A stretch of 64,000 nucleotides of DNA from Methanosaeta sp. PtaB.Bin018. GTDB lineage: Archaea; Halobacteriota; Methanosarcinia; Methanotrichales; Methanotrichaceae. Position numbers and translations under genes: made by a program. Positions 8,843-47,894 of the stretch are shown piece by piece (the stretch's first letter is position 1; the number at the start of each line of letters is the position of its first letter). Under the pieces are notes generated by a model. The model did not search any database and was not told the DNA's origin. It saw only the letters and a list, made by a program, of their open reading frames with translations. The stretch lies in assembly GCA_002067755.1 (NCBI GenBank), contig MVQH01000077.1, forward strand, positions 1,425-65,424. The letters run 5' to 3'.

Positions 8843-8864
8843 TTACTCCTCAAATAATACAAAT

Positions 8865-9452: not shown

Positions 9453-9478
9453 CCTGCGTTTGCAGCAATTATCTTAAA

Positions 9479-11985: not shown

Positions 11986-12021
11986 CTTGGCCCCAAGCAG
12001 TTTTTTTGGAGATTCGCTATA

Positions 12022-13263: not shown

Positions 13264-13268
13264 AGGCG

Positions 13269-13709
13269 ATGAGAACGATCGAGGTCTCTGTGTACTCTTC
13301 CGTCAGGCCCACTGAGTGTGTGGAGAAGGTCGTCTCGGCGATCGAAAAGATATTTCCCGGGCTGATCATGGACATTCGCGACGACCGCATCCTGGCCTAC
13401 GATGGCCCCGAATCCCTGAAGACCTTTCACGAGCTCTTGAGGAGGCAGAAGATTCTGGATACCGCCAGGTCCGTCATGCTTGGAAGCCTTGTGGGCGAGT
13501 CCATTCAGTTCCAACTCAACAAGCAGGCAGCCTTAATGGGAAAGGTGAGCTTTCCACCTGAAGAGGAGCCGCTTGGGTCGGTTCATGTGAAAATCACAGG
13601 CGGCAGGCATGTGATCGACTGGCTGGCACCCCAGACGGAAAAGGGCGTGCCGATCAGAGAGATCGAGCTGGAAGATCTCTTTGAAATCGAGGGTGATGAA
13701 GATGTTTAG
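13269..13709 (+). CDS. UPF0201-type small archaeal protein (putative RNA-binding, COG1931-like)
   Basis: The N-terminal pattern VYSSVRPTECVEKVVSAIEKIFP matches my memory of the V.PTED.EKV..AI...FP signature. Assigned from memory only. Confidence 0.5.
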   Translation: MRTIEVSVYSSVRPTECVEKVVSAIEKIFPGLIMDIRDDRILAYDGPESLKTFHELLRRQKILDTARSVMLGSLVGESIQFQLNKQAALMGKVSFPPEEEPLGSVHVKITGGRHVIDWLAPQTEKGVPIREIELEDLFEIEGDEDV

Positions 13710-14472
13710 CTTCTCCTCCAGCAGGCTCGTGGACCGGCCCTTCGACTGGGCATATCAGCTTGAGGACTTGGGCTACAGCGGCTGGGAGATCGTAAATGAA
13801 GGGCGTCAGAAGCTCACGCCTGAGAGCCTGGTTGAGGTCGAGAGGATCATCGAGACCACAGATCTCACGATTACAATTCATCTGCCGTACTCCGACTTGA
13901 ACTTGGCATCCGTGAACCAACCGATCTGGGAGGAGACTGTGCGACAGATGAAGAGCTGCCTGGACATCTCCAGCGAATTCGCCCGTCTGGCTGTACTGCA
14001 TCCAGGCCACTTCTCTCCTCTGGGAATGCAAATGCAGGATTCTGCCTGGTCCCAGGCGATACTAGGCATCCAGCAGGTCTGCGATCGAGCAGCAGATCTG
14101 GACATCAAAATTGCCGTAGAGAACATGGTAAACATGCCTGCAGTCTTGGGCAAAAGGCCCGAAGAGATCTTGGGGATACTGGAGACCGTAGATCGGGAGA
14201 ATGTTGGGTTTATATTCGATGTGGGGCACGCCAATACCAACGGAAATGTGTTGGACTTCTTGAAGCTAAAGGACAAGATCATCCACATCCACATGCACGA
14301 CAATCATGGCGAGAGGGATGAGCACCTGCCTGTTGGAAATGGCACTGTGCCATGGAAAAAAGTCGTCTCTTGCCTGAGAGATTACAAGGGCCGCATTGTG
14401 ACCGAGTCTCGCTCACTGGAAGAGGGACAGAGATCTGTGAATCGTCTCAAAAAATTGATGAAGATTGGATAG
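13702..14472 (+). CDS. Sugar phosphate isomerase/epimerase (xylose-isomerase-like TIM barrel)
   Basis: Contains IAVENM..., FDVGHAN and HIHMHDNHGERDEHLPVGNGTVPW. ATG 13702 overlaps the upstream stop; the tracked start is 13681. Confidence 0.7.
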   Translation: MFSFSSSRLVDRPFDWAYQLEDLGYSGWEIVNEGRQKLTPESLVEVERIIETTDLTITIHLPYSDLNLASVNQPIWEETVRQMKSCLDISSEFARLAVLHPGHFSPLGMQMQDSAWSQAILGIQQVCDRAADLDIKIAVENMVNMPAVLGKRPEEILGILETVDRENVGFIFDVGHANTNGNVLDFLKLKDKIIHIHMHDNHGERDEHLPVGNGTVPWKKVVSCLRDYKGRIVTESRSLEEGQRSVNRLKKLMKIG

Positions 14473-29739: not shown

Positions 29740-30440
29740 AAACTGCGCGCGGCCACCCCCGCCCTAAAGGACGGGGTATGCTTCGGGCCGCGCGCCCGGT
29801 TAGCCGGAATTCAGAAATCATCGAGTCTTCGTTGCCCTGACCACCTCAACTTTCGTGATTGGAACTCTATTTTCTGTTTTCCCTGAAAATCCTTGATATA
29901 ATGCTGGATAGTATCAGTGGTGACATTTCCAACAGACCGAAAAAATTTTCCAGCAGACCATAGACTACCACCCCAATATTGCTTTCTCAATTCAGGATGA
30001 AGCCTGAACAATCTATAAGAGCTACCTCCTTTTAAGTACTGAATTGCTTCTGACAGAGAGGTTGATGGGTGAAATTCCAAGAACAGGTGAACATGATCCT
30101 CAACTATTTGCATAGCATGGATTTTATATCCCTGCTTTATACAAATATTGCTGAGGACTAACTCGCAATCCTTTTTAACTTGGCTATTGTTGAATATTCT
30201 GTATCGATACTTTGGCACCAATACGATGTGGTATGTTATCTGGCCAAAGCCATGGCTAAAGCTGCGCAATTCCAATGCGTATCACATCCTAGCCATAGGT
30301 GGCTGTCACCACCTGTGGCTAAGGTGCCAAAATAATCTCATGTTCAATATATGTAACGTCAAACGGATTCAAGAAGCAGAAAACTGGGCGAGGGTTCACT
30401 TCATCCCCAACCTGAAGGTTGGGGGATTCGTGACCCTCCG
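29740..30440 (-). mobile_element. IS200-type minimal insertion sequence (IS200/IS605 family, tnpA only)
   Basis: About 700 bp. A Y1 transposase gene is flanked by subterminal hairpins. The 3' side has GCGCGCGGCC...GGCCGCGCGC (29745-29795). The 5' side has ATCCCCAACC-tgaa-GGTTGGGGAT (30403-30426) nested in GGGTTCAC/GTGACCC (30392-30436). A 12-bp imperfect stem (30291-30320) lies 16 nt upstream of the ATG. No tnpB. Exact ends are not determined. Confidence 0.7.
29811..30275 (-). CDS. tnpA: IS200/IS605-family Y1 (HUH) transposase TnpA
   Basis: 154 aa with YHIVLVPKYRYRIF and the HUH motif (DHVHLFLEF); typical size. Confidence 0.9.
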   Translation of the reverse strand: MELRSFSHGFGQITYHIVLVPKYRYRIFNNSQVKKDCELVLSNICIKQGYKIHAMQIVEDHVHLFLEFHPSTSLSEAIQYLKGGSSYRLFRLHPELRKQYWGGSLWSAGKFFRSVGNVTTDTIQHYIKDFQGKQKIEFQSRKLRWSGQRRLDDF

Positions 30441-33043: not shown

Positions 33044-34254
33044 TAATGGAGAATTACATCGTTAAACTCGCGGGCTGGAAAACAATAGCTCTATTGATTT
33101 TCTGGCTCATCATTCAGCCTGTTGTATGTAGCAGTGACCTGGATTGGCCACAGTTCCACATGAACCCACAGCATACGGGCAACGCAAGCGTCAACGCTCC
33201 AGATGCGGCCCTTCTGGCTTGGAAGAGCGAAGCAATCGGCGCTCAGGAGGGGTCATCTGTATCGGTGGCAGAGGAGAAGGTATTCGTAAACTGCGTCAGC
33301 AATTTGACCTGTCTTGACCTGCGAACTGGAAAATTGCTATGGAGCACTGCCTTCACCCCCATGGACGATATCTGTCAGGCATTTGGCTGCTCGCCGGCAT
33401 ATCATCAAGGCAAGGTCTTTCTCTCCAGCCAAGATACCCTCTGCCTTAATGCATCTGACGGAAAGGTGCTGTGGATCTTTACACCTCCCACGAAAAGGGG
33501 TGCATTGGATGGAGGACCAGTGATAAGCGACGGCTTCGTTCTGGTCAGCGACTGGGATGGTCATCACTACTACTGCCTTGACGAGGTTACTGGAGAGGAA
33601 CTGTGGAACTTCACAGTCGAGGGCAATGCTCAGTCTACCCCAGCCATCGACCAGGGAAGAGTGGTCTTTGGCAGCTGGGAGTGGGGCCTTGGCGGCAAGG
33701 TCTACTGTGTCGACCTCAGAGATGGCTCAGAGATCTGGAATATGACAACCAAAAACTCGCCATGCGGCTCGGCTGCCATTTGGCAGAATGTGACCTGGGT
33801 TACCACTTACAACTTCGAAGGAGATGGAGAAGTCATGGCCATCTCACTCGAGGACGGGAAACTTCTCTGGGAGAGGACCATTCAGAGAACGGACTGTACC
33901 CCCACGCTTGCCAGCGGACGGCTATATGTTTGTGGTGGTGCCGATGGCTTCAGCGACAAGGTCACCTACTGCTTCGATGCCTCTAGCGGCGAACTTCTCT
34001 GGAATACTTCGAAGGAGGAGGAGATCGGCGAGTGGAGATGCTCTCCTGCCTATGCGGACGGCCTGCTGTTTGTGGGCAAGACAGATAGCAAGAGCTCCAC
34101 ATACGATACCCTCTGTGCGCTTAATGCCAGTACAGGTGATATTGTATGGAGCTATCCGGCAAGCGGATCGGCCCCGGCAGTTGCCTATGGAATGGTATTC
34201 TCCATAGGCGCAGGCAGGGTCTACGCTTTTGGGCCTGGAGGCAGCAGCACGTGA
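33040..34254 (+). CDS. Exported PQQ-like beta-propeller protein, single module, paralogous to the C-terminal half of the upstream gene
   Basis: 404 aa with an N-terminal hydrophobic segment, then DWPQFHMNPQHTGN. ATGA start/stop overlap with the upstream gene. Confidence 0.8.
   Translation: MIMENYIVKLAGWKTIALLIFWLIIQPVVCSSDLDWPQFHMNPQHTGNASVNAPDAALLAWKSEAIGAQEGSSVSVAEEKVFVNCVSNLTCLDLRTGKLLWSTAFTPMDDICQAFGCSPAYHQGKVFLSSQDTLCLNASDGKVLWIFTPPTKRGALDGGPVISDGFVLVSDWDGHHYYCLDEVTGEELWNFTVEGNAQSTPAIDQGRVVFGSWEWGLGGKVYCVDLRDGSEIWNMTTKNSPCGSAAIWQNVTWVTTYNFEGDGEVMAISLEDGKLLWERTIQRTDCTPTLASGRLYVCGGADGFSDKVTYCFDASSGELLWNTSKEEEIGEWRCSPAYADGLLFVGKTDSKSSTYDTLCALNASTGDIVWSYPASGSAPAVAYGMVFSIGAGRVYAFGPGGSST
33544..33774 (+). 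repeat. Copy 2 of the ~231-bp near-identical segment
   Basis: See 32339-32569. Confidence 0.9.
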
Positions 34255-37200
34255 GGATATCTGATGCCAAAAATTTGGGAGTCTGCATCCCTCTGATCTT
34301 TTTTTTATTTGGATTGATGATGCAGGCCAGTGCAGACTTCACCACTTTTCACGGTGATAACCAGAGGACTGGCAACGTAAGCGGCAACTATCCTGATGAA
34401 CCCCATGTTCTCTGGAGCGCGAGCCCGACAGGTCACGGCTACATTGGCGCTACAGCTGCCATATCTGGCATTAGAGTTTACATCTCCAACTGGCCGGATA
34501 TGACCTTCAAAGGGGAGCTTGGGCTTGCATGCCTGGATGAAGAAAATGGGACAGTCCTCTGGCTCAATTCGCTTGGCGGCAAAGGTGGAGCCTCAACTCC
34601 TGCCATATCGGATGACAGGGTCTTTGTCGGCTCACTTACGGGAGACCTTTACTGCCTTAACTCCACTACCGGAAAAACATTGTGGAACCGCACTCTAGAT
34701 AAAAATCCGGGGTGGTGGGGAGTGGCATCATCGCCTCTGGTTCAGGGTGAGACGGTATACGTCATGAGTTTCTCAGACGGAGCTATTCATTCTCTGGATC
34801 TGGATGGAAAGGAGATGTGGAACATGACCACGGGTCGGATTCATCCCTTCGCATCAGCTGCATCATCAGGCAGAAGGCTTTACTTCCCCGGTGGCGATCC
34901 GGCACTGTACTGCATCGATGCAACCTCAGGAGAGCTGGTATGGAAAGCCCCGCAAGAGTCTCAGATCACAGCCACCCCAGCCCTCTGGAACGATCTGGCA
35001 TTCATTGTTACTGAGAAAGCCCTTAAGGCCCTAAATGCCAGCACAGGCCAGGAGATCTGGAAGGTAGCCATCAATGGCACGATGTCTTCGCCTGCCATCT
35101 CTTTCGATAGGGTCTATGTCGGATCGGATGACGGATCCACGGGCCACTTGGCCTGCTTTAATGCCCAAAATGGCTCACAGGTTTGGAGAACGGAGGTCAA
35201 CGGCCCAGTCAGATCCTCGCCTCTGGTCGGGGATGGGAAGGTCTACTTCGGAACTAATACAGAGGCTGGAGTCATCTATTCACTGAATGCCTCCAATGGG
35301 TCTGTCGCCTGGAGCTACCCCGTCCATCAATATGTTATGGCCTCTGCTGCTGGATCCGATGGCGTCATCTTCATAGGGTCCGATGATGGCCTTCTCTACG
35401 CCTTTGGTTTTATGCCGAAGGGGCATCTCCGGAATGGAGACATTCAGCATGATGATGAATCAGTCAAATTCAATATCACAGCACACACAACTCGCCCAAA
35501 TGCACTTTTCATTACTGTAGGCAACCATCCTCAAATAGAAGTGGCCTCCCAAAATGCTGCTCTTAATGTGACCTTGGCTCCACCAACCAATGTCTCGAAC
35601 TTATCCTCTTATGACCTAATATTCCTGGAGATGCTCGGGGCAGAGGATGTTTCAAATCTTGCGCCCCTGATCGAGGATGCTAAAAAAAAAGGCGTTCCTG
35701 TAATAATACTAAACTCTGGGGGCTATGAAGACCTTGGCAATGTGAATTTATCGGATCATCCTAAAATTCAAGAATACTGGGACTACAGCGGCATTGAGAA
35801 CATGAGACGACTCTATTCCTACCTGGCAGCACGCATATTGGGCTTAAATGTCAAAGTAGAGGAGCCCGTACCCACCCCAAAAGAATACATATACCATCCA
35901 GATTCAGCTGAGATCTTCGATAACCTCTCACATTATTTGGACTGGTATGAGAATAAACCCGGACATCGTTACAATCAATCAGCTCCAACTATTGGCATAT
36001 TGAGCTATTATACAGACCTGGGACAAATAGACATTAACCGTCTCATCTCTGCCTTGGAGAGAGAGGGAGCAAACGTCATAGGCGCAGGATTCTCCAACAC
36101 ATCGACCATCAAAAGGCTCTTCTTCAAGAACGGAACGCCTATCGTAAACGCCGTGATACTCACCAAGTCCTTCCGGATAAATTATGGTGATGCAGATCAG
36201 GGTGTCTCGGATTTAGAAGACCTAAATGTTCCTGTGCTACGTGCAATGAGGTTATACTACCAGACTGCAGAGCAGTGGACAAATGCGTCCAGCATCGAGC
36301 CGATAGAGCTCTATTTCCAGGTCGCTCAGCCTGAGATGGATGGGGTCATTGAGCCCATTGTAATCTCAGGCAGAGACGAGACGATCTATGCTCCGGTGGA
36401 GAGCCAGATCGAATGGATAGCCGAACGGGCCTTAGCCTGGGCAGAGCTGGAAAGAAAGCCCGAGTCGGACAGGAAGCTGGCCATCATCTATTATAATCAC
36501 GCGGCTGGCAAGGACAACCTGGAAGGCTGCTACCTCAATGTTCCCCGCACCCTAGAGAATATCCTGGAAGGCCTGAACAGATCGCTATTCAAGGTGCAGG
36601 GAAGCATTCCAGATGAGAAGGACCTGGTAGATCTCCTGGCCCACGAGGGAACCAACATTGGATCCTGGGCCCCAGGTGAGCTTTTGTCGATGGTCGATAA
36701 GGGGAATGCAACTTTAATTCCTGCCGAAGAATACCTCTCCTGGTTTGAAACCCTGCCCGCAAACAGACAGGAGGAGACGATAAAACACTGGGGACCACCG
36801 CCAGGCGATATAATGGTCTATCAGAACGAGAGCGGAAAATATATTGTCATTCCAAAGCTCTCCTTTGGAAATGTCATTTTGCTGCCTCAGCCCACCAGAG
36901 GCTGGTTGGAGAACAATACAGTACTTTATCACTCCACCGACCTTCCTCCTCATCATCAGTACATAGCCTTCTATCTCTGGCTCAAAAATGGATTTGGCGC
37001 TGATGCCATAGTCCATCTGGGAAAACATGGGACTCAGGAGTGGCTGCCCGGCAAGGAATGCGGCATATCCAGAGATGACTGGCCTGCACTTCTCATCCAG
37101 GACCTGCCTGTGGTCTACCCATATATCGTCGACAACATTGCCGAAGGGACGCAGGCCAAGCGCAGGGGAGATGCTGTGATGGTCACCCATCTCACTCCGC

Positions 37201-39470
37201 CAATTGTTGCCTCCGGGCTATATGGCAACCTGACAAACCTTGCACAGACGGTCTTCGAATACAAGAGTGTGCAAAACGCCAGCGTGAAAGAGGGCTACAA
37301 GAGACAGATCATCAACATCAGCAGGGATATGCATCTGGACGAAGATCTTGAGGTGGATCTGAATCTTATCTCTTCAAATTCTACCAGCTTCGATGTCTAT
37401 GCAGATGATCTGGAAAGATATCTTTACGATCTTAAGAACCAGTTCATGCCATACGGACTTCACACCTTTGGCAAGCCTCCTGAGGGCAGGGCTCTGGTGG
37501 GCATGGTGAAGTCCATGCTGGGAGAGGGCCTGTCCAAAGAGGTTGCACACATGATATCATACAGCGATTATCCAAACATCACGCGCCTTGACAAGGAGAA
37601 TGAGCTCGAAAACTGCGAAACAAAGCTGCTTTCACTGGTAGTGATCAACGGGACTCTTCCTGATTATGCCCAGATGGCGGTTTTGAATAATGTCTCAAGA
37701 AACCTGTCTGATCAGCTAAATCTATCTCTGGCATATGCACAGAACATTCGAGCCTGCCAAAGAGAGGTGAGAAGCCTCGTAAGTGCCTTGGACTCCAATT
37801 ATACATCGCCTTCTCCAGCCGACGATCCTATTCGAGATCCAGAGGTTCTTCCTACCGGACGGAACTTCAGGTCACTTGATCCGCGCAGGGTGCCAACAAG
37901 TGCTGCCTGGGAGGTAGGCAAAAATCTGGCTGAAAAGATCATTGAAGAATACAGGCAGGATCACAACGGTACTTTTCCAAGAAAGCTGGCGATGGTGCTC
38001 TGGGCCTGGGCCATGACTGATCACGGTGTTGTGGAATCGGAAATCCTCTCTTTGATAGGGGCAAAGCCAGTCTATGACGGCTACGGTGGAGTGTGTGACG
38101 TAAAACTTGTACCGCTCTCCGAGCTCGGCAGGCCCAGGATAGATGTGGTGGTCGTGCCTTCAGGCCTTGACAGAGATCTGTTTCCAGAGAAGCTCCAGCT
38201 AATAGACAGAGCTATCAGACTGGCCAGCAACGACAGTAGCACAGAGTATTCCAACTTTATCCGAGAGAACTCAGAAAAGATATTCCAGGAGCTGATGGCC
38301 ACAGGAAATGTGAGCGAGAGTGATGCACGAATCCTATCCACCTCCAGGATATTCCTGGAAGAGGCAGGGACATACGGTCCCAACCTCGACGCTGCAATAT
38401 CTGCCAGCAATGCCTGGGAGAATGACACAGTGCTTGGCAACCTCTTCATAAAGAGGATGTCTTACATCTACGGCGATGGGATCTGGAGCAGCAAGCTGGC
38501 CTCCGGAGAGGACCTATCTCCCTTGCAAGAGGATCTATACAAGACCAATCTTCAGGAGGTAGAGGCAGCAGTCCATCACACCAACTCCAACCTCTACGGA
38601 TTCATAGACAACGACGACGTCCTCCAGTACCTGGGAGGCATAGGGCTGGCGGTGAGAACTGTCAGTGGAAAAACACCTGATATGTACGTCACCGATGCCA
38701 GAGATCCTGAAAGCACAGCAGTATCATCGTTACACAACTTTTTCTCCAAGGAGCTTCGGGCACGTTACTACAATCCTCAGTGGATCAAAGGGATGATGGA
38801 GCAGGGCTACTCAGGTGCCAGGGAGATGGACAAGTTCGTTGAAAACCTGTGGGGCTGGGAGGCTATGCTTCCCGATATGGTCTCTGAGGCTGTCTGGAAT
38901 GAGGTGCATGATGTCTATGTAAGGGACAAGTATGATCTCGGCATGAAACAGTTCTTTGACCAGAACAATCCCTGGGCATCTCAGGCCCTCGAAGGGAGAA
39001 TGCTCGAGACTGCCAGGAAATGTAGGTGGCACCCAGACCAGGCTACAAAGGCAGATCTAGTCCGGGAGTACCAACGATCGGTAAAGGATTTTGGTGTGAC
39101 CTGCTGTCACCACACCTGCGGCAACCTACTGCTAAACGAGTACATGAGTGGAATTCTCCCTGCACAAGACAGACAAGACGGCTCCAGACAGAGCGACTCG
39201 AAGCCAAGCCATAAAAGCTCCTCGTCCAAACGCTCCTCTCCAGGGGGCGCTTCTGGACGCTTCAACACAACGAAGTCGAGCGGTGTGGGCACAGCGTCCG
39301 CAAAGCCTGTGGAAAAGACACAGTCAGCCTCAGAAGAAGTGCAGGGCATGGTCATGGAAAGCCCTTCGAACGACATCTCTCTGCCATCCATTTCTGGCGC
39401 GCCGCTCATGGGTGTGGCCTTGGTGCTTGTCATGTTGCTGTTCATGATCGCAGGATTCAGGAGAGGCTGA
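34251..39470 (+). CDS. Exported fusion protein: PQQ-like beta-propeller, then a CobN/ChlH-type (class I) chelatase large-subunit domain, then a Ser-rich linker and a C-terminal TM anchor
   Basis: A GTG at 34251 (GTGA overlap with the upstream stop) gives the signal-like (M)RISDAKNLGVCIPLIFFLFGLMMQASA. The propeller module starts FTTFHGDNQRTGN. The CobN-type core includes HLGKHGTQEWLPGKE, DPIRDPEVLPTGRNF and AVHHTNSNLYGFIDNDD. The C-terminus is SSSSKRSS...PLMGVALVLVMLLFMIAGFRRG. I count about 35-40 N-x-S/T sequons by eye along the whole length. Confidence 0.85.
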   Translation: MRISDAKNLGVCIPLIFFLFGLMMQASADFTTFHGDNQRTGNVSGNYPDEPHVLWSASPTGHGYIGATAAISGIRVYISNWPDMTFKGELGLACLDEENGTVLWLNSLGGKGGASTPAISDDRVFVGSLTGDLYCLNSTTGKTLWNRTLDKNPGWWGVASSPLVQGETVYVMSFSDGAIHSLDLDGKEMWNMTTGRIHPFASAASSGRRLYFPGGDPALYCIDATSGELVWKAPQESQITATPALWNDLAFIVTEKALKALNASTGQEIWKVAINGTMSSPAISFDRVYVGSDDGSTGHLACFNAQNGSQVWRTEVNGPVRSSPLVGDGKVYFGTNTEAGVIYSLNASNGSVAWSYPVHQYVMASAAGSDGVIFIGSDDGLLYAFGFMPKGHLRNGDIQHDDESVKFNITAHTTRPNALFITVGNHPQIEVASQNAALNVTLAPPTNVSNLSSYDLIFLEMLGAEDVSNLAPLIEDAKKKGVPVIILNSGGYEDLGNVNLSDHPKIQEYWDYSGIENMRRLYSYLAARILGLNVKVEEPVPTPKEYIYHPDSAEIFDNLSHYLDWYENKPGHRYNQSAPTIGILSYYTDLGQIDINRLISALEREGANVIGAGFSNTSTIKRLFFKNGTPIVNAVILTKSFRINYGDADQGVSDLEDLNVPVLRAMRLYYQTAEQWTNASSIEPIELYFQVAQPEMDGVIEPIVISGRDETIYAPVESQIEWIAERALAWAELERKPESDRKLAIIYYNHAAGKDNLEGCYLNVPRTLENILEGLNRSLFKVQGSIPDEKDLVDLLAHEGTNIGSWAPGELLSMVDKGNATLIPAEEYLSWFETLPANRQEETIKHWGPPPGDIMVYQNESGKYIVIPKLSFGNVILLPQPTRGWLENNTVLYHSTDLPPHHQYIAFYLWLKNGFGADAIVHLGKHGTQEWLPGKECGISRDDWPALLIQDLPVVYPYIVDNIAEGTQAKRRGDAVMVTHLTPPIVASGLYGNLTNLAQTVFEYKSVQNASVKEGYKRQIINISRDMHLDEDLEVDLNLISSNSTSFDVYADDLERYLYDLKNQFMPYGLHTFGKPPEGRALVGMVKSMLGEGLSKEVAHMISYSDYPNITRLDKENELENCETKLLSLVVINGTLPDYAQMAVLNNVSRNLSDQLNLSLAYAQNIRACQREVRSLVSALDSNYTSPSPADDPIRDPEVLPTGRNFRSLDPRRVPTSAAWEVGKNLAEKIIEEYRQDHNGTFPRKLAMVLWAWAMTDHGVVESEILSLIGAKPVYDGYGGVCDVKLVPLSELGRPRIDVVVVPSGLDRDLFPEKLQLIDRAIRLASNDSSTEYSNFIRENSEKIFQELMATGNVSESDARILSTSRIFLEEAGTYGPNLDAAISASNAWENDTVLGNLFIKRMSYIYGDGIWSSKLASGEDLSPLQEDLYKTNLQEVEAAVHHTNSNLYGFIDNDDVLQYLGGIGLAVRTVSGKTPDMYVTDARDPESTAVSSLHNFFSKELRARYYNPQWIKGMMEQGYSGAREMDKFVENLWGWEAMLPDMVSEAVWNEVHDVYVRDKYDLGMKQFFDQNNPWASQALEGRMLETARKCRWHPDQATKADLVREYQRSVKDFGVTCCHHTCGNLLLNEYMSGILPAQDRQDGSRQSDSKPSHKSSSSKRSSPGGASGRFNTTKSSGVGTASAKPVEKTQSASEEVQGMVMESPSNDISLPSISGAPLMGVALVLVMLLFMIAGFRRG

Positions 39471-39557
39471 AGGCGTAAAGATTATTATCATCATATTTTT
39501 CCTTTAATCAACAAAACTTGCGTAAGCGTTATATCCAACCAGGATGATTTTAGACAA

Positions 39558-40250
39558 TTGGTGTCCTCATTGGAGCTCTCATCGATTACTGTTAGTGGTA
39601 TCTTGATAGGCATTCTTATCTTTGCATTTAAAGTCAGCCTTGGCTGTGGCATGGCCTGCCTCAGCCGTCGTGAAACTCTGTTAATAGCTCTCAGCTATAT
39701 GGCACTGGCCAGCCTGATGGGTGTCATCATTGGATTCATACCGAATTCGGTCTTCTTTTGGCTGCTGAACGCTGGGGTGGCCATGCATGCCGTCATCGCC
39801 TTGCTACTGGTCACCTTGGGCGTGATTACTGCTAGGGAATGGAACCGTGAAGGCCATGATATCTCTCGTCGCACCTTCTGGGCCCTGTCCTTTCCCTGTC
39901 CGGCCTGCATGGCCGCAACTTTCCTATCCTGTAGCTTTCTTGTAGGCGTTTTAAATGTTGCCTCTTGGATGATAGGCCTTGCCGTGGGAGCGGTCTTTCT
40001 CGTATCCATCATCGGGCTATCTGAGCTGTTTCGAAAGAGTCACAGGACGCCATCTGATATGGGCAATGCCATGATATTTCTAGGGCTTTTTTATATTTTA
40101 TCAATGCTGGTCATCCCTGCTTACCTCGGCTCTAAAATAGCTTCAACGCCTTCGGAGATGCCCTCAGTAAATGCTGTCTACATTTATGGATTTCTTTTTG
40201 GAATGGTGCTTCTGGGATACCTGAGCAGGAGGATGGGGGTCGCCAAATGA
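39558..40250 (+). CDS. Polytopic membrane protein (DUF2162-like predicted transporter) with an intramembrane CPAC motif
   Basis: 230 aa with ~6 hydrophobic segments. SFPCPACMAATFLSC is encoded at 39897-39908. TTG start as tracked. The DUF2162 assignment is from memory of methanogen annotations. Confidence 0.6.
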   Translation: MVSSLELSSITVSGILIGILIFAFKVSLGCGMACLSRRETLLIALSYMALASLMGVIIGFIPNSVFFWLLNAGVAMHAVIALLLVTLGVITAREWNREGHDISRRTFWALSFPCPACMAATFLSCSFLVGVLNVASWMIGLAVGAVFLVSIIGLSELFRKSHRTPSDMGNAMIFLGLFYILSMLVIPAYLGSKIASTPSEMPSVNAVYIYGFLFGMVLLGYLSRRMGVAK

Positions 40251-40888
40251 TGGGCATCTACGATACATGCGAATACATGCTCTATGTATTCTCAGATGCC
40301 ATGCTTTATCCAGATATGATCGGGCTGATCCTCCTATTTGGCTGGTCTCTAACCCTGGTAGGATCGATGGTTCATGATTTCACCACCCGTAATAGAGATC
40401 TCGAGAAGATTGAGGAGATATGTTTTCAGGCGGCGGGTCTTGTGCGATCTGGCCGGACGGATCAGGCTGCAGCAAAGCTCGGCAGCTATGGGTCCAAGAC
40501 GCTTGTCTCCCGGGTTTTAAAGGAGATGGGAGATGCCATTTTGGTTGGGACCTTCCACCTGAAGTTCGAGAAGATTTTGCAGGATGCAGAGATCAGCATA
40601 GACAAATCACTTGAGCTCATTCGGATCGGTGTCAGGATAGGACCAATGCTGGGGCTGATGGGAACACTGATACCCCTGGGACCAGCACTTCTTGGCCTGG
40701 CTCAAGGCAATATCAAGCAGCTTTCAGACAGCCTGGTGATAGCTTTCACCACCACTGTGGTGGGCATAGTGGTGGGAGGGATATGCTACTGTGTTGCGAC
40801 AATAAGGACGCGATGGTACCGTCAGGACTTGAGCGATCTGGAGTATGCAGTCGACATCCTCAGGAGCGAGATTGATGAGGGGGCGTAG
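40247..40888 (+). CDS. MotA/TolQ/ExbB-family proton channel protein
   Basis: C-terminal signature GPMLGLMGTLIPLGPALLGLA...SDSLVIAFTTTVVGIVVG. ATGA overlap with the upstream gene. Confidence 0.8.
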   Translation: MMGIYDTCEYMLYVFSDAMLYPDMIGLILLFGWSLTLVGSMVHDFTTRNRDLEKIEEICFQAAGLVRSGRTDQAAAKLGSYGSKTLVSRVLKEMGDAILVGTFHLKFEKILQDAEISIDKSLELIRIGVRIGPMLGLMGTLIPLGPALLGLAQGNIKQLSDSLVIAFTTTVVGIVVGGICYCVATIRTRWYRQDLSDLEYAVDILRSEIDEGA

Positions 40889-41231
40889 GTATTTCAGCGA
40901 GGCTGCTCCATGGAATGAGGACCCCATGAGCGGGCTGTCTAATATCTTCGACGCTGCCATGGTCTTTGCTCTTGGGTTCTTGCTGGCGCTAGCAGTCTCG
41001 TACAGCATCCAAGAGATGCTCGATCCTCAAAGCACAGTGACTTTGGTCAAGAATCCAGGAGATCCCGATATGCAGATAATCATCAAGGACATGGATAAAA
41101 TTCAGGTGCTGAACATGACCGACAAGATTGCTGGAGGACAGGGCACAAAGATGGGAACAGCCTATCGCCTGGAGAACGGGCAGGTGGTCTATGTGCCGGA
41201 GAACGCCACTTCGCCCTCAGTTCAGAGTTAG
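40875..41231 (+). CDS. Single-pass membrane protein (DUF2149-like), ExbD/TolR-like in topology
   Basis: ATG 40875 overlaps the ExbB-like gene by 14 nt. The TM segment LSNIFDAAMVFALGFLLALAV carries an Asp at its start, as ExbD/TolR do. A ~80-aa extracytoplasmic domain follows. Confidence 0.55.
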   Translation: MRGRRYFSEAAPWNEDPMSGLSNIFDAAMVFALGFLLALAVSYSIQEMLDPQSTVTLVKNPGDPDMQIIIKDMDKIQVLNMTDKIAGGQGTKMGTAYRLENGQVVYVPENATSPSVQS

Positions 41232-41422
41232 GGCAGCCCCATTGATAATTTCTCATTTAGTTCCTGATCATCGGCATATTTCACCTTGTTTTTGGTGCTA
41301 TTTGGGTTATTAAATGATCAAAAGATGCTAATTTTAATCTTAGTCCAAAAAGTTTAAATAAAATCATTATAACTTGATCTACTTGATTTGTATTAACAAA
41401 AATTAATTTGAGGTAGAGAGGG

Positions 41423-42943
41423 ATGAAACATTTGGCTTTGGCGCTATTTTGCGTTTTTTTACTTACACTCACAACAGCATCGGCAGAGGTAACGGCTCAA
41501 ATAACTGTTTTTTGTAATGGAGGTGTAGTCTACGACAATGCTGTGACGGTTACTGGTTCGAATCCCACTGCCTGGGACGCCATTCGGGCAAGTGATGTGG
41601 GCTATGATTATACCGACTATGGTGGATGGATTTTTATAAATAGCATTGCAGGATGCGGCGGAAGCTGGGGCCCCGCATTTTATGTAAATGGAGCCGAGTC
41701 CGATGTAGGCGTCAACAGTTACTACATAGAAGATGGCGATCATCTTCAGTTCATTGGGCCGAACAATGGCGGACCGACAGCAGGCATCCTGTATCTTGCT
41801 GTGCTTCCGGATGTTGTAGCCAAAGGCGAAGGCTTCAGGGTCAAAGTAATGGAAAAATCTGCATACTCATATGGGGGCTATGATCGCCCATCAGCAGGCG
41901 CAACAGTCACCATAGGCAATGAGACCTTCGATACAGGCAGCGACGGCTACACAGACGAGATCGTCCTCGACTATGACGCCTATTATTGCGTAGCCGCAGA
42001 GAAGGGCGGATATGTGGCCACATATTACTTTTATGGCCTTCCGTATATTCAGTGTGGAGTTGGAGGGCCCTACATTTGTAGCGTTACTGGCGAAGGGTCG
42101 AAGAGAGGAAATATAAAGTACGACGAAGACTCATCGGTCAGCGGCGAAGGGTTCTGTTCGTGCCGATCCTACTTTGAAAATTATGGCGGAAAATATCCAG
42201 CACGCTCGACAAAGGCTTACCAAAAGGGATCTGGAAGCTACGACGCTGAGAGAATTATCAAGCAGAGGCCGAGTGGAATCGACCTCAGCGAATCAACGGA
42301 GATGAATTATCGTCCGACCACAGTTGAGGCTTATAGCCGGGATCTTAACTACAAATCCAATTACGAGGACAGCATATACCAGAAGAATTATCGTGGAGCC
42401 ACAGAATCCTCCGAGAGATATCGCCAACTGAATTCCCTTACGAAGACGAGCTATTATAACAATAGCCGAGGAATCAATTACTCTTTCACGGCGAACTTTC
42501 AGGGAATAGCTGAACTGTCTGCACGCACCCTTGAGGACGAGGCCTTCTTGGACTGGAGAGAAAAGGCTCGGCCTAAGGAAGAGTCTATTGAGACTTACAT
42601 CGGCAACTTCCAAATTTCCCGAAGAGGTTTTCTCCCGATGGGTGGGAACGATGAAACGGATTGCGAAGAGGACTGCAAATGGAATTGTAAAAAGCATTGC
42701 ATGGAGGACGAGGGATATAGCGAGGAGTACTGCGAAGAGCATTGCGGTGAGTATTGCGAAGATTATTGCGAGAACGAATCTACCTATGAGGATTATGAGC
42801 TTTTACCATGCTGTAGCGGTGGATGGTTCAATATGACAAAGGCAGATCAGATTGGACATTCTGCCAAAGGCATCTTCGATTGCTCCTGCAAAATTACTGC
42901 GGCTCCAGTATTGATCGGCAAGAAGGCCAGTTCGAAGGCATAA
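41423..42943 (+). CDS. Secreted DUF4430-domain protein (transcobalamin beta-domain-like) with Ig-like middle region and a Cys/Glu-rich C-terminal region
   Basis: Signal MKHLALALFCVFLLTLTTASA. DUF4430-like block TAWDAIRAS...YGGWIFINSIAG...WGPAFYVNGAESDVGVNSYYIEDGDHLQF. Then CEEDCKWNCKKHC...YCEEHCGEYCEDYC. Confidence 0.65.
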   Translation: MKHLALALFCVFLLTLTTASAEVTAQITVFCNGGVVYDNAVTVTGSNPTAWDAIRASDVGYDYTDYGGWIFINSIAGCGGSWGPAFYVNGAESDVGVNSYYIEDGDHLQFIGPNNGGPTAGILYLAVLPDVVAKGEGFRVKVMEKSAYSYGGYDRPSAGATVTIGNETFDTGSDGYTDEIVLDYDAYYCVAAEKGGYVATYYFYGLPYIQCGVGGPYICSVTGEGSKRGNIKYDEDSSVSGEGFCSCRSYFENYGGKYPARSTKAYQKGSGSYDAERIIKQRPSGIDLSESTEMNYRPTTVEAYSRDLNYKSNYEDSIYQKNYRGATESSERYRQLNSLTKTSYYNNSRGINYSFTANFQGIAELSARTLEDEAFLDWREKARPKEESIETYIGNFQISRRGFLPMGGNDETDCEEDCKWNCKKHCMEDEGYSEEYCEEHCGEYCEDYCENESTYEDYELLPCCSGGWFNMTKADQIGHSAKGIFDCSCKITAAPVLIGKKASSKA

Positions 42944-42944
42944 A

Positions 42945-43949
42945 ATGAGGGATGACATGATTAAATTGTTTGGTGCAGTCCTTGCCTCAGTCGTGTTTCT
43001 TGGCATAGCAACAGGAACTATCGACGGTTCCGGAGAGAAGAATCCGGTGGTCACCAATGATTCTTTGGAATTGGGACTTCTTTCGATGTCTGATGGGCCG
43101 ATAGTTTCTGCAATAAATTATCTATCGTCCTGCCAGAATGAGGATGGGGGCTTTGGACCCGATCCAGAATCTGAGAGCAACATTAAAGATACAGCCATAG
43201 TTACAATTGCCTTTGCGTCTGCAGGCAAAAATATGTCGGATTTTGCCAAGGGTGGGAAGAACTCCCTTGATTATTTAATTGAGAGGCAGGCAGAACTCGA
43301 CAATTTAAGCAATGTCGAAGCCCAGGTAGGGCGATACGTGACTGCCCTCGCATCAGCTGGCTTGGATCCAAGGGATATCAAAGGCAAAAACTACGTGCAA
43401 ATCTTGAAAAGCTACTGTCGACCCGACGGTGAGGTGGGCAAAGAGTTCTACATCTGGGATGATGCATGGATCGTGATCGCCCTTGCCGCATGCAATGAGT
43501 CTCATTCAAATGAGGTGAAAAGTGCGCTCGAGCATCTGAAGAGCATACAGACAGCCAAGGGAGGTTGGGCCTGGAACGGAGGCACTAGCGGCGAGGACCC
43601 AGACACTGCAAGCATAATTTTATGTGCACTGATATGTGGAGGTGAAGATGCGGACTCCGATGCGGTCAAGAGAGGTTTGCAGTATCTTTCATCAGAGCAA
43701 AATGCAGATGGAGGGTTCTCATCCGTTGGATCCAACGCTGCTACCGATGGCTGGGCTATCATGGCCCTCAATGCTGCAGGCCAAAATCCCAGATCATGGA
43801 AGAAGGGATCCTCCGATCCTATCGGCCATCTGCTAAGCCTCCAGCAGGATGACGGCTCTATATGGTGGAAAAAGGATAGCAAGGGTTTTTCCTTTGAGTG
43901 GACTGCCAATGGGATAATAGCCTTGACCGGAGGGCGAATGCCTCCGTGA
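42945..43949 (+). CDS. Secreted prenyltransferase/squalene-cyclase-like alpha/alpha-toroid repeat protein
   Basis: N-terminal hydrophobic segment, then QW-type repeats: QNEDGGFG, QTAKGGWAW, QNADGGFS, QQDDGSIWW. Starts 1 nt after the upstream stop. Confidence 0.7.
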   Translation: MRDDMIKLFGAVLASVVFLGIATGTIDGSGEKNPVVTNDSLELGLLSMSDGPIVSAINYLSSCQNEDGGFGPDPESESNIKDTAIVTIAFASAGKNMSDFAKGGKNSLDYLIERQAELDNLSNVEAQVGRYVTALASAGLDPRDIKGKNYVQILKSYCRPDGEVGKEFYIWDDAWIVIALAACNESHSNEVKSALEHLKSIQTAKGGWAWNGGTSGEDPDTASIILCALICGGEDADSDAVKRGLQYLSSEQNADGGFSSVGSNAATDGWAIMALNAAGQNPRSWKKGSSDPIGHLLSLQQDDGSIWWKKDSKGFSFEWTANGIIALTGGRMPP

Positions 43950-44016: not shown

Positions 44017-45177
44017 ATGATGAAGCGCATTTACATGGACCACTCCGCCACCACACCCGTAGCTCCTGAGGTCATGGAGGCGATGCTTCCATACTTTTCC
44101 GAGAAGTTCGGCAACGCCTCCAGCCTGCACAGCTTCGGCCTAGAGGCTCGGCAGGCCCTGGAAGCCTCCAGAGAAAAGGTGGCGAAGCTTTTGGGAGCAA
44201 ACCCGGAAGAGATCATCTTTACATCAGGCGGAACGGAATCCGATAACCTGGCACTGAAAGGCATAGCCTACAGGAACCGTGAGATTGGGTCGCATATCAT
44301 CACCTCCTGCATAGAGCATCCGGCAATTCTGGAGACATGTAGAATGCTCGAAAAAGATGGATTCGATGTGACCTACCTTCCGGTTACAAACGAGGGGTTC
44401 GTTGATCTGGCAGCACTTGAGTCGGCCATTCGCAAGGACACCATCCTCATCTCAATCATGCATGCCAACAACGAGATCGGGACGATCCAGCCTCTGGAGG
44501 AGATCGGCAGTCTGGCAGCCGAGAAGGATATCTACTTTCATACCGATGCAGTGCAAAGCGTAGGCAAAGTTCCCACTGACGTTGACGCCCTCGGATTAGA
44601 CCTGCTCTCCCTATCGGCACACAAGCTCTATGGGCCCAAAGGGGTGGGCGCGCTATACATTCGCAAGGGCACAAGGCTTAATAGCATCATGCAGGGCGGC
44701 GGCCATGAGCGCGGCCTTCGATCTGGAACTGAAAACGTGGCAGGCGTTGTCGGACTTGCCAGAGCGGCAGATCTGGCCAGGGAGACCATGATCCAGGAAG
44801 CGGAAAGGCTCGCTGAGCTTCGCGATCGACTGGCGAGGCTGGTCTTGGCGAAGGTGAAGGATGCCTGGATCAACGGCTCCATGAAAAAAAGGCTCCCCGG
44901 CAACCTGAACTTCGGCTTCAGATACGTCGAAGGAGAGTCGCTCCTCCTGTTCCTTGACTCAAAAGGCATCGGCGTGTCCACAGGCTCTGCCTGCTCATCC
45001 AAGAAGCTGGAGCCAAGCCATGTCCTGCTATCCCTGGGCCTCAAACCGGAAGAATGCCACGGCTCATTGAGGATCTCCATGGGAAGGTCGAACACGCAAG
45101 ATGAGGTGGACTTTGTTGCTGAGTGCATCGTCGAAGCAGTAGAGAGGTTCAGGAGCATCTCAGCGCTGGGACGGTGA
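44017..45177 (+). CDS. nifS: Cysteine desulfurase (NifS/IscS type, PLP-dependent)
   Basis: YMDHSATTP, PLP-lysine block SAHKLYGPKGVGALY, and active-site Cys in STGSACSS. Confidence 0.9.
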   Translation: MMKRIYMDHSATTPVAPEVMEAMLPYFSEKFGNASSLHSFGLEARQALEASREKVAKLLGANPEEIIFTSGGTESDNLALKGIAYRNREIGSHIITSCIEHPAILETCRMLEKDGFDVTYLPVTNEGFVDLAALESAIRKDTILISIMHANNEIGTIQPLEEIGSLAAEKDIYFHTDAVQSVGKVPTDVDALGLDLLSLSAHKLYGPKGVGALYIRKGTRLNSIMQGGGHERGLRSGTENVAGVVGLARAADLARETMIQEAERLAELRDRLARLVLAKVKDAWINGSMKKRLPGNLNFGFRYVEGESLLLFLDSKGIGVSTGSACSSKKLEPSHVLLSLGLKPEECHGSLRISMGRSNTQDEVDFVAECIVEAVERFRSISALGR

Positions 45178-45795: not shown

Positions 45796-47043
45796 TTGAA
45801 TTCCTTGAGCGTTGAAGATCCCGAAATCGCAGCCGCTATCCATTCCGAGCTGGAGCGGCAGCGAAACAATATCATATTGATCGCATCCGAGAACTACGCA
45901 AGTAGAGCGGTCATGGAGGCCCAGGGCTGCATCATGACCAACAAATATGCGGAAGGCTATCCAGGCAAACGCTATTATCGTGGCACTGCCTGCGTGGACG
46001 CTGCCGAGGATCTGGCCCGCGAGCGCTGCAAGAAGCTCTTTGGTGCAGAGCACGTGAATGTGCAACCGCACAGCGGAACCCAGGCGAATATGGCTGCGTA
46101 CTTCGCTGTGCTAAAGCCGGGCGATACCATCATGGGGATGAATCTCGCCCACGGCGGCCATCTCTCTCACGGAAGTCCCGTCAATTTCTCAGGCAGGATG
46201 TACAAGATCGTTCCCTACAGCGTTCGCAGGGATACTGAGATGCTGGACTACAGCGAGATGGCTGACATAGCAGCAAAGAGCAAGCCACAACTGATAGTGG
46301 TAGGTGCATCCAGCTACCCCCGAATAATTGATTTCAAGGCAGTCCGTGAGATTGCAGACGATGTAGGAGCCTTGGTGATGGCAGACATCGCCCACATTGC
46401 GGGCCTATGTGCTGTGGGCGCACATCCATCGCCCATTCCCTACGCGGACATAGTCACCACAACCACCCATAAGACCCTGCGCGGGCCCAGGGGTGCTCTG
46501 ATAATGTGCAGAGAGGAGCTGGCATCATCAATAGACAGGTCAGTCTTCCCAGGCACTCAAGGCGGGCCATTCATGAATTCAATAGCTGCAAAAGCTGTGG
46601 CTTTCAAGGAAGCTCTGGCCCCTGAGTTCAAGGAGTATCAGTTCCAGATCGTTCGGAACGCGCGCGCTCTTGCCGAAGGGCTTCTGAGAAATAAATTTGA
46701 TCTGGTCTCTGGTGGCACCGACAACCACCTCATGATGGTCAAACTACTCAAAGAGGGCATCACAGGCAAGGTAGCTGATGAGGCGCTTGAGAGAGCTGGC
46801 ATCACCCTCAACAAGAACATGATTCCATTCGACCCGGCCACGCCCTTTGTCACCAGTGGCATTCGGATAGGCACTCCATGCGTTACCACCAGGGGCATGA
46901 AGGAAAAGCAGATGATGCAGATAGCAGACATGATCACTGCAGTGCTGCGCGACATAAAGAACGAAGAGACCATAAAGGCTGTGCGCTCTCAGGTCAAAGA
47001 GCTCTGCGACCAATTCCCTCTGTACCCTGATCTGACATGTTGA
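45796..47043 (+). CDS. glyA: Serine hydroxymethyltransferase
   Basis: LIASENY, and [12 protein letters not shown] with the PLP lysine. TTG start as tracked. Confidence 0.95.
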
Positions 47044-47894
47044 TCGAAGGAAAGCTCCTGGCCTTGGACGTGGAGGCAGAGACGAGGAAGAAGGTAGAGA
47101 GGCTGGCAGAGCAAGGCGTTTTGCCGGGCCTCGCTACTGTGCTGGTAGGCGAGAATCCTGCCTCGCAAATGTACATCCGCCTGAAGCATTCGGCGTGCGA
47201 GCGCGTGGGCATTCATTCTGAGAACGTGGTGCTTGCAGAGAACACCACTGAGGAGCAGCTCATCGGCAAGATCCTGGAGCTGAATGAGCGCCCGGATATA
47301 CACGGCATCCTCTTGCAGTTGCCACTGCCAAAAGGCCTCAGTCCCAAGAAGGCCATGATGACGATCAAGCCGGAAAAAGATGTTGATGGATTTCATCCCG
47401 AGAACATGGGCTCGCTGCTTTTGGGCGCAGAGCGCCTTGTGCCCTGCACGCCACTGGGGATAATCTATGCGCTTGAGCGCCTGGGAAAGAAGCTGGAGGG
47501 TGCAGAGGTTGTGATCGTGGGCCACAGCAATGTCGTTGGCAAGCCTCTGGCAGCAATGATGCTCAACCGCAATGCAACAGTCCAGGTCTGCCACGTCTTC
47601 ACCAAAGACCTGGCGAAGCACACTCGAGACGCTGAGATCCTAGTAGTGGCTGCGGGCGTTCCAGGTCTTATCAAGAGGGATATGGTCAAGCCCGGGGCCT
47701 TTGTCTTCGACGTGGGCATCAACCGCGTAGGGAACAAGACCGTTGGCGATGTGGACTTCGAGGCTGTCAAGGACGTGGCCGCGGCCATTACGCCGGTTCC
47801 AGGAGGCGTCGGGCCGCTGACTGTGTCCATGCTGCTTTGCCAGACTGTGCAGGCTGCAGAGAGCCAGCAGCGAAAACTCGAAAAAAGAGACTAG
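47037..47894 (+). CDS. folD: Bifunctional methylenetetrahydrofolate dehydrogenase/methenyl-THF cyclohydrolase
   Basis: Contains [21 protein letters not shown] and [10 protein letters not shown]. Confidence 0.9.

Follow-up and report, generated by a model that had tools for sequence, protein, structure and literature searches.

The closest described relative of the locus reported here is the heme-iron pathway of Bacteroidota (Porphyromonas gingivalis, Bacteroides thetaiotaomicron) encoded by hmuYRSTUV, whose products include HmuS (annotated as CobN), HmuU (MotA/TolQ/ExbB), and HmuV (DUF2149) (PMC11681262, PMC10434189). In the periplasm, HmuS takes iron out of heme; helices at its N- and C-termini anchor it (PMC12583661, PMC12094164, PMC13227078). 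Cytoplasmic CobN and ChlH have no such anchor helices (PMC13227078). HmuS activity needs a reductant in vitro, and the physiological electron route is said to be probably membrane-associated (PMC13227078, PMC12583661). Archaea are said to have no complete hmu operons, and archaeal CobN homologues have been called unexplained (PMC12583661, EMBO J 2025). Here, we describe a CobN fusion gene of Methanosaeta sp. PtaB.Bin018 and three overlapping genes downstream of it, which encode a DUF2162, an ExbB-like, and a DUF2149 protein (the trio). The DNA analyzed, called the window, is a stretch of 64,000 nucleotides (contig MVQH01000077.1, positions 1,425 to 65,424), and all coordinates are those of the window.

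Judged from sequence, the trio and the CobN fusion form the archaeal equivalent of hmuS, hmuU, and hmuV. In both systems, a membrane-anchored CobN-family protein (signal peptide, C-terminal anchor), an ExbB-family gene, and a DUF2149 gene are adjacent and on the same strand, and a polytopic membrane gene of ~230 amino acids (aa) lies just upstream of the ExbB-like gene. The window DUF2149 protein is 43% identical to HmuV in the alignment. The identities of the genes, their conservation and synteny, the topology signals, and the homology with HmuU and HmuV together suggest that a proton-driven unit of the ExbB-like and DUF2149 proteins works for an extracellular CobN-family (de)chelatase that is tethered to the membrane and scavenges metals or tetrapyrroles. 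We give this reading about an even chance. An earlier note on this DNA had proposed a TonB-like energy-transduction principle in a single-membrane archaeon. The ExbB assignment in that proposal stands; a TonB-like protein is absent, and the arrangement is not unique to archaea, given its hmu counterpart. The genes and sites concerned are as follows (TM, transmembrane).

34146 to 39470, + strand: CobN fusion, 1774 aa (Pfam CobN-Mg_chel, 1127 bits)
39345 to 39359, + strand: juxtamembrane tether motif G-M-V-M-E of the CobN fusion (motif conservation)
39402 to 39458, + strand: C-terminal TM anchor of the CobN fusion, followed by RRG (Kyte-Doolittle 2.56)
39558 to 40250, + strand: DUF2162 polytopic membrane protein, 230 aa, Cys/His-rich (Pfam DUF2162, E 4.7e-52)
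39897 to 39908, + strand: C-P-A-C codons at the predicted cytoplasmic start of DUF2162 TM4 (translation)
40247 to 40888, + strand: MotA/TolQ/ExbB-family subunit, 213 aa, 3 TM (Pfam MotA_ExbB, E 4.2e-10)
40845 to 41231, + strand: DUF2149 single-pass protein, the HmuV equivalent, 128 aa (Pfam DUF2149, E 2.5e-31)

The positions given earlier for three tightly overlapping genes proved exact. The first two genes overlap by 4 bp. The DUF2149 open reading frame (ORF) overlaps the ExbB-like gene by 44 bp if counted from the first ATG. Its start is probably Met11 (MRGRR, ~40875), because most homologues begin at the matching position, and the overlap would then be ~14 bp. The nearest homologues are found in Methanothrix/Methanotrichaceae; the host is a Methanothrix-type archaeon and therefore has no outer membrane. 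Archaeal loci were fetched with the DUF2149 alignment, and the best-scoring 80 of 165 matches were used. All were from Halobacteriota (Methanotrichales, Methanomicrobiales, Methanosarcinales, ANME-1, and Syntrophoarchaeum). The trio order was readable in 75 of the 80 loci, the other 5 being interrupted by contig ends. The order DUF2162, ExbB-like, DUF2149 was kept in all 75 informative loci, with DUF2162 always immediately upstream of the ExbB-like gene. Since this identical three-gene order recurs in 75/75 loci, the trio consists of real conserved genes and not of chance ORFs.

TM segments were located by a Kyte-Doolittle scan, domains were assigned with Pfam, and single-chain models were built with AlphaFold and compared by Foldseek. 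The middle protein of the trio, read in the earlier note as a MotA/TolQ/ExbB-family channel, scored 39.9 bits against Pfam PF01618 (MotA_ExbB), whose gathering cut-off is 22.9 bits. The profile of its subfamily matched solved ExbB (E 2.3e-4), MotA (E 4e-4), and TolQ (E 7e-4). Its hydrophobic segments (20-38, 134-152, and 159-177) give the ExbB/TolQ-type topology of TM1, a cytoplasmic helical domain, and a TM2-TM3 hairpin, and the alignment with Escherichia coli ExbB covers chain residues 15-197. T140 (GLMGT; 40664-40666) aligns with T148 of E. coli ExbB and T170 (AFTTT; 40754-40756) with T181. Both threonines were invariant in 29 archaeal and bacterial subfamily members. By these sequence criteria, the protein is a genuine MotA/TolQ/ExbB-family member with its channel residues intact. 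Over its full length it is 32% identical to the HmuU of a Bacteroidota operon described below (E 2e-31), and the two are far closer to each other than either is to generic ExbB. A stator driving an archaellum or pilus would be suggested by the family name alone (MotA is the flagellar stator), together with a weak NCBIfam MotA match (E 0.0065, 15.5 bits against a cut-off of 340). Synteny effectively refutes this explanation: the window cluster contained no archaellum or pilus genes, and neither these nor any TonB gene turned up among the conserved neighbours of the 80 archaeal loci. Archaella are ATP-driven, and the subfamily is nearest to HmuU.

The DUF2149 protein has an N-in tail, a single TM helix with an Asp, and a small external domain. 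The sequence NIFDAAMVF, noted earlier in this helix, comprises residues 33-41, and the codon of Asp36 lies at 40950-40952. Asp36 was present in 81/81 archaeal copies. An exhaustive profile search returned 740 DUF2149 representative clusters, and the Asp was present in 137 of the best 150 (137 of ~145 aligned representatives), the remainder being mostly gaps or fragments. In the AlphaFold model (predicted local distance difference test, pLDDT, 77), the TM helix at 27-52 scored 94-96; one long helix is followed by a five-stranded beta domain, and an alpha/beta fold is absent. Pfam ExbD (PF02472) gave no match in 74 diverse DUF2149 members, even at E up to 10, and a DUF2149 profile search of all PDB sequences gave no match. 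A Foldseek search of the model against PDB returned nothing with E <0.5, and no ExbD, TolR, or MotB was among the 50 matches listed. With hhalign, just 17-19 TM residues aligned with E. coli ExbD and TolR, at a probability of ~3%, placing Asp36 opposite ExbD D25 and TolR D23. Of the two sequences used, that of ExbD was confirmed against PDB 6TYI. Family membership of DUF2149 as a remote ExbD homologue was rejected: none of Pfam, the PDB profile search, hhalign, and AlphaFold with Foldseek showed homology, and the TM helix with its Asp was all that aligned. The earlier assignment to the ExbD/TolR/MotB type holds for the architecture and the conserved TM Asp and fails for family membership and fold; DUF2149 is a stator B subunit in architecture but a separate family.

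The anchored CobN fusion mentioned in the earlier note lies upstream of the trio and was confirmed. It comprises a signal peptide, a PQQ propeller, a CobN/Mg-chelatase domain, a Ser-rich linker, and a C-terminal TM helix. Since the ORF overlaps the preceding gene by 109 nt, translation probably begins downstream of 34146. Among solved structures, the CobN domain is closest to the HmuS heme dechelatase 9d26 (E 9e-158; 530 bits, vs 467 for ChlH and 455 for CobN). A C-terminal TM helix with a basic tail was found in 44/44 complete archaeal and 6/6 bacterial linked CobN-like proteins, as well as in the window protein. Ahead of the helix lies a tether motif, [VILE]xGxx[MI]x (EVQGMVME in the window), which was found 43-46 residues from the C-terminus in 39/44 distinct archaeal tails, against a background rate of 12.8% in a 75-aa window. 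Among the six bacterial proteins, five carry it as well (QVTGYEME, VEGKIME, VKGYKME, IQGFKME, and VEGIAMD), and it is unclear in the Bacteroidales HmuS of locus L081. Within the surveyed loci, the motif was confined to CobN-domain proteins, and no alternative client with the same C-terminal tail was found in the CobN-less loci. By analogy with the single TM helix of TonB, the C-terminal helix and the tether are the best candidate for coupling the enzyme to the membrane unit. A Cys-x4-5-Cys-x-N motif also follows the CobN domain (CCHHTCGN, within VTCCHHTCGN, in the window protein, in the approximate region 39110-39140), with counterparts in the bacterial linked CobN-like proteins (CSGTVCNN, CADNVCGN, CSDNTCAN, and CSYETCGN).

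The linkage between the trio and CobN was assessed in the 31 archaeal loci that were fully flanked (at least 5 kb on both sides of the trio). A CobN-domain gene was present in the flank in 23 of them, and 3 more had a PQQ-CobN fusion running off the locus edge. Adjacent CobN genes were on the same strand as the trio in 40/43 cases. The expectation that the trio would neighbour CobN-like genes was borne out for most loci, but not for all, and the trio was not tied to archaellum or pilus loci. No AAA+ partner was conserved near the CobN-like gene. In some lineages, the neighbours were metal-related: a CDF transporter, a ZIP transporter, an Opp/Nik-type ABC ATPase, and a DOMON/DUF2202 protein. 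Several metagenome-assembled genomes (MAGs) carry two trio loci each (L018 and L030, L043 and L063, L050 and L067, L057 and L060, L069 and L070, L075 and L077). Genomes can hold several paralogous modules, which would fit a division of CobN-like enzymes or substrates among them. An archaeal-type trio, with a DUF2149 protein 59% identical to that of the window, was also found on a 2.6-kb contig labelled Desulfuromonadales bacterium (L064), which is probably a mis-binned archaeal contig and not a bacterial one.

For bacteria, 9 loci were hand-picked from divergent DUF2149 clusters, and the host context was deduced from the neighbouring genes; 2 contigs were too short to judge. The locus of one DUF2149 representative (P0247), on a Bacteroidales contig, encodes HmuY, a TonB-dependent receptor, a 1392-aa CobN, a 231-aa membrane protein, MotA_ExbB, and DUF2149. 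Six bacterial loci combine CobN, ExbB-like, and DUF2149 genes; a third membrane gene and a TonB-dependent receptor gene are each present in some of them and absent from others. In L089, a BtuF-like (Peripla_BP_2)/CbiZ (adenosylcobinamide amidohydrolase) fusion gene at 9357-11315 lies between DUF2149 and CobN, beside a TonB-dependent receptor gene; from its gene content, L089 is a corrinoid-salvage flavour of the module.

These neighbourhoods bear on the classical Ton/Tol-type explanation, in which the pair energizes an outer layer (sheath, S-layer, or outer-membrane receptor) and the CobN linkage is incidental operon sharing, as assumed for HmuUV and HmuR. In Bacteroidota and several other bacteria, the module has a TonB-dependent receptor gene as a neighbour, and published operon schemes assign HmuU and HmuV to the powering of HmuR (PMC12583661). 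We nevertheless consider this explanation very improbable. TonB or a TonB-dependent receptor is impossible in Methanothrix, and neither occurs among the conserved archaeal neighbours. The window cluster has neither a HmuY hemophore nor a HmuR receptor, because its host has no outer membrane; HmuY, Plug, and TonB_dep_Rec domains were not found by Pfam in any of the eight cluster genes. The receptor gene is also absent beside the module in the bacterial loci L084 and L086, and L090 comes from a probably monoderm setting. Moreover, DUF2149 lacks the ExbD periplasmic fold that binds TonB, and the CobN linkage is far more constant than the receptor linkage. As the pair occurs in archaea without an outer membrane and in bacterial loci without receptor genes, the chelatase itself is indicated as the partner.

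The first protein of the trio belongs to DUF2162 (PF09930, "predicted transporter"), with positions 2-223 of the 223 profile positions covered. The earlier note had given it ~6 TM segments; we counted 7 hydrophobic segments by Kyte-Doolittle and 8 helices in the AlphaFold model. The FPCPAC sequence noted earlier was confirmed; nucleotides 39897-39908 encode exactly its CPAC part, C114-P115-A116-C117. The expected conservation of these cysteines was found in the archaeal copies: C114 in 75/75, P115 in 75/75, and C117 in 74/75, with a third Cys, C125, in 74/75. The conserved motif is S-x-P-C-P-[AV]-C, and the residues listed as invariant include E39, H77, D101, C114, C117, and C125. The conserved cysteines C30, C114, C117, and C125 are in or near TM helices. 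A likeness of CPAC to the metal-coordinating CPx motif of P1B-ATPases had also been drawn; it was rejected as a motif coincidence. A Pfam scan of the window protein and 53 family members found no E1-E2 ATPase or related domain, DUF2162 was the only significant match of the window protein, and the 230-aa protein has no soluble domains. The weak Pfam matches among the members (DUF2231 and DUF998) were uninformative. No link of DUF2162 to DsbD/CcdA, NicO, HupE, or P-type ATPases was seen in the Pfam scan of 53 members or by Foldseek. HmuT was also rejected as a homologue, as BLASTP found no similarity, hhalign gave a probability of 0.3%, and HmuT had no DUF2162 Pfam match. The archaeal polytopic protein thus differs from the Hmu system in being a Cys-rich DUF2162 protein unrelated to HmuT, which has no such cysteines. 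DUF2162 is a candidate metal or reductant conduit.

Two explanations give the polytopic protein the leading role. In the first, the pair energizes uptake of a tetrapyrrole or released metal across the cytoplasmic membrane via DUF2162 in archaea and HmuT in Bacteroidota, and the CobN-like protein independently feeds this importer as a tethered enzyme or chaperone. The position of a ~230-aa polytopic gene directly upstream of the ExbB-like gene in archaea (75/75), Bacteroidota, and the bacterial locus L086 is consistent with it, as are the conserved Cys, His, and Glu spread along the DUF2162 helices and the fact that soluble HmuS works without partners. HmuTUV has been proposed to move heme or iron across the inner membrane (PMC12094164, PMC13227078). 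However, the polytopic gene is not conserved: HmuT and DUF2162 are unrelated, and the third membrane gene is absent in L084, L085, L087, and L089, where CobN, ExbB, and DUF2149 persist. We also know of no MotA/ExbB-family unit that powers a cytoplasmic-membrane permease, and we regard the importer as unlikely.

In the second explanation, the SxPCPxC motif and the extra cysteines of DUF2162 pass reducing equivalents outward in the manner of CcdA/DsbD, so that the metal is reduced before extracellular dechelation, and the pair is a scaffold or regulator only. The four conserved cysteines in or near TM helices and the reductant requirement of HmuS, with its probably membrane-associated electron route, speak for such a conduit. 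In the Pfam scan of 53 members and by Foldseek, however, DUF2162 showed neither sequence nor fold similarity to DsbD/CcdA, and HmuT has no such cysteines though HmuS also needs reduction. Nor would a conduit account for the invariance of Asp and Thr in the ExbB/DUF2149 pair. We regard it as decidedly unlikely.

The active site of the CobN domain bears on the substrate. The window protein has DNDDVLQYLGG, as in solved CobN cobaltochelatases, whereas HmuS has SLDHVYEFMGG with the proposed axial residues His1209 and Glu1212. Asp and Gln occupy these two positions in the window, and the proposed catalytic pair of HmuS is absent. Since the window motif (DNDD..Q) is unlike that of HmuS, heme may not be the substrate; from the motif, heme and a corrinoid-like or other non-heme substrate are equally likely. 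Three variants of the motif occur across the archaeal loci: DNDD..Q in most, HmuS-like xIDHTFEF in some Methanosarcinales MAGs, and EHPMVAAY in Methanoculleus and Methanofollis. In four loci from Methanosarcinales MAGs (L067, L075, L076, and L069), tandem CobN-like genes lie upstream of one trio, one with xIDHTFEFFGG (His/Glu) and one with DGDDPFQYFGG (CobN-type). Some archaea thus encode HmuS-type candidates for heme dechelation. The Methanoculleus/Methanofollis proteins (L042, L054, L059, and L078) have EHPMVAAYFGG or DHSQVAAYFGG, with neither the His/Glu pair of HmuS nor the Asp/Gln pair of CobN. From these three variants it follows that the motor-like pair would serve catalytically diverse CobN-like proteins.

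The module can also be compared with other described systems. The module shares with ExbB-ExbD-TonB and TolQ-TolR-TolA the Pfam family of its A subunit, which has 3 TM segments and both channel threonines. The partner of the A subunit is a single-pass N-in protein whose TM Asp is in the register of ExbD D25 and TolR D23, the two genes are adjacent and overlapping, and an extracytoplasmic protein on one TM helix could take a TonB/TolA-like role. Unlike those systems, the archaeal module has no TonB/TolA homologue, outer membrane, or TonB-box receptor. The external domain of DUF2149 is small and all-beta, whereas that of ExbD/TolR is alpha/beta, and the candidate client enzyme has its anchor at the C-terminus, that of TonB being N-terminal.

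With the class I ATP-dependent chelatases CobNST and ChlHID, the window protein shares a homologous large subunit, the superfamily-wide HLGKHG histidine, and the CobN-type DNDDxxQY. Canonical CobN and ChlH, however, are soluble cytoplasmic proteins driven by the AAA+ proteins CobS/T and ChlI/D, whereas the window protein is exported and membrane-tethered, and the sole candidate energy source in the archaeal module is a proton channel. GldL-GldM (type IX secretion and gliding), ZorA-ZorB, and AglR-AglQS are MotA/ExbB-superfamily motors whose B subunit is not ExbD-like. They provide a precedent for an A subunit with a divergent single-pass partner and a non-receptor client. To our knowledge, none of their partners is DUF2149, none occurs in archaea, and none is linked to a chelatase.

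In the mechanism that we favour, ExbB-like subunits would surround the DUF2149 helices to form a proton-conducting stator-type unit, with the buried Asp36 as the protonatable site facing Thr140 and Thr170. The client would be the extracellular CobN-family (de)chelatase, held in the same membrane via the C-terminal helix and the GxVME tether, and not an outer-membrane receptor. Proton flow would be converted into a movement that aids the loading, processing, or release of a metallated tetrapyrrole, or the handing on of a product; the reaction might run in either direction, as chelation or dechelation. DUF2162 would be an archaeal accessory that carries a soft metal ion (Co, Ni, or Fe) into the cell or reducing equivalents outward.

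Several points weigh against this proposal. In vitro, purified HmuS that lacks its TM helices removes the iron from heme when given NADH, in the absence of ATP (PMC12583661). As the soluble enzyme is active without ATP, energy may be spent on hand-off or release, and not on the chemistry. No CobN-domain gene or fusion fragment lies within 10 kb in five of the 31 fully flanked archaeal loci (L020, L026, L041, L051, and L074). CobN is also absent from two other loci. One is L088, which is atypical. In the other, the bacterial locus L090, the ExbB-like/DUF2149 pair is followed by Fur and a CbiM/CbiQ/ABC (ECF-type Co/Ni) transporter (8374-14149); its host is probably monoderm, because the contig encodes a CW_binding_2 surface protein. 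The "ExbD-like" label for DUF2149 is one of architecture and a single residue, given the ~3% probability of the TM-helix alignment. The role assigned to DUF2162 is a guess, as its AlphaFold model is poor (pLDDT 67) and no Foldseek match below E 0.3 and no known transporter fold were found. Finally, the sampling is limited, both in the archaeal loci (Halobacteriota only) and in the hand-picked bacterial ones.

A bolder version of the proposal can be stated. The pair would be an unrecognized class of proton-driven motor that engages the C-terminal helix and GxVME tether and is an extracellular equivalent of CobS/T and ChlI/D. The module would be common to methanogenic and alkane-oxidizing archaea and to bacteria (as HmuS/U/V), and methanogens would use it to scavenge or remetallate Co, Ni, or Fe tetrapyrroles (corrinoids, F430-like compounds, and heme). 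We put this forward tentatively, as a possibility that is on balance doubtful.

The trio is the centre of an eight-gene same-strand cluster at 30656-43949. The remaining four genes are as follows.

30656 to 33043, + strand: exported PQQ-type beta-propeller protein, 795 aa, first gene of the cluster (Pfam PQQ_2, E 3.9e-63; N-terminal hydrophobic signal or anchor)
33040 to 34254, + strand: exported PQQ-type beta-propeller protein, 404 aa, a paralogue of the 795-aa protein (Pfam PQQ_2, E 5e-40)
41423 to 42943, + strand: exported 506-aa protein with a Cys/Glu-rich tail (sub-threshold DUF4430; signal peptide)
42945 to 43949, + strand: exported 334-aa alpha/alpha-toroid protein with prenyltransferase / squalene-cyclase repeats (Pfam SQHop_cyclase_C, E 1.4e-16, and Prenyltrans, E 6e-11; N-terminal hydrophobic segment)

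PQQ propellers, fused or adjacent, are a further feature in which the archaeal cluster differs from the Hmu system. The 795-aa propeller gene is co-located with the trio in Methanotrichaceae loci. The two propeller genes share a 300-nt direct repeat of 85% identity (32236-32535 vs 33441-33740) and a second repeat (32684-32871 vs 33889-34076). Within the 300-nt repeat, ~75 aa of encoded protein (SDWDGHHYYCLDEVTGEELWNF...SPCGSA) are the same in the two paralogues, which suggests a recent duplication or gene conversion between them.

The N-terminal part of the 506-aa protein matched Pfam DUF4430 at 22.0 bits (E 2.2e-4), below the cut-off of 23.8. Transcobalamins carry DUF4430 as their C-terminal domain (PMC4350170). 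No transcobalamin link of the 506-aa or 334-aa protein was found in PDB sequences. A sub-threshold DUF4430 beside an alpha/alpha-toroid protein is weak support for a corrinoid theme. The C-terminal third of the 506-aa protein contains a very acidic, Cys-rich stretch (DETDCEEDCKWNCKKHCMEDEGYSEEYCEEHCGEYCEDYCENE...LLPCCSGGW) with repeated C-x3-C spacing, which looks like an extracellular metal-binding or disulfide-rich module. The gene adjoins the trio in 9/80 loci, all Methanothrix-type MAGs, and co-occurs with the 334-aa gene in 10 loci. The 506-aa protein is lineage-specific, as is the 334-aa protein, and is a possible ligand binder. In the favoured mechanism, the exported beta-propellers and the DUF4430/alpha-toroid pair would capture the ligand in the Methanothrix-type lineage.

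The upstream edge of the cluster is marked by an IS200-like (Y1_Tnp) transposase gene directly upstream (29811-30275, - strand; Pfam E 6e-36). The downstream flank holds housekeeping genes. Read from the translations, the gene at 44017-45177 looks like a cysteine desulfurase, and ORFs within 45796-47894 resemble serine hydroxymethyltransferase and FolD. No riboswitch or other RNA element was found in 28-45 kb of the window.

The gene families described here are already catalogued, and the bacterial counterpart operon is known. We found nothing specific in the literature on archaeal ExbB-type proteins linked to CobN. Three observations appear to be new in the literature searched. Methanogens and alkane-oxidizing archaea hold the Hmu S/U/V core, but their third membrane protein is a different one and rich in Cys. 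The ExbB-like/DUF2149 pair is constantly partnered by a CobN-like protein with a C-terminal anchor, and not by an outer-membrane receptor. A conserved tether motif accompanies the CobN-like anchor.

Methanogens rely on corrinoids, F430, and iron-sulfur clusters in their core metabolism. If true, an extracellular (de)chelatase coupled to protons would give them a new route to cobalt, nickel, or iron from environmental tetrapyrroles. Methanogens have many CobN paralogues, whose role was flagged as open in the 2025 HmuS paper, and the module offers a lead on the extracellular ones. In the widespread heme-iron pathway of Bacteroidota, HmuT, HmuU, and HmuV are drawn as receptor helpers, and the archaeal loci offer a lead on their true role. 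If the bolder version is true, HmuU and HmuV would not power the outer-membrane receptor as now drawn, and ExbB-type energy transduction would be independent of an outer membrane. The DUF2149-type partner would be a new B subunit, with a new kind of client (an enzyme), for the 5:2 motor family, which would extend to archaea.

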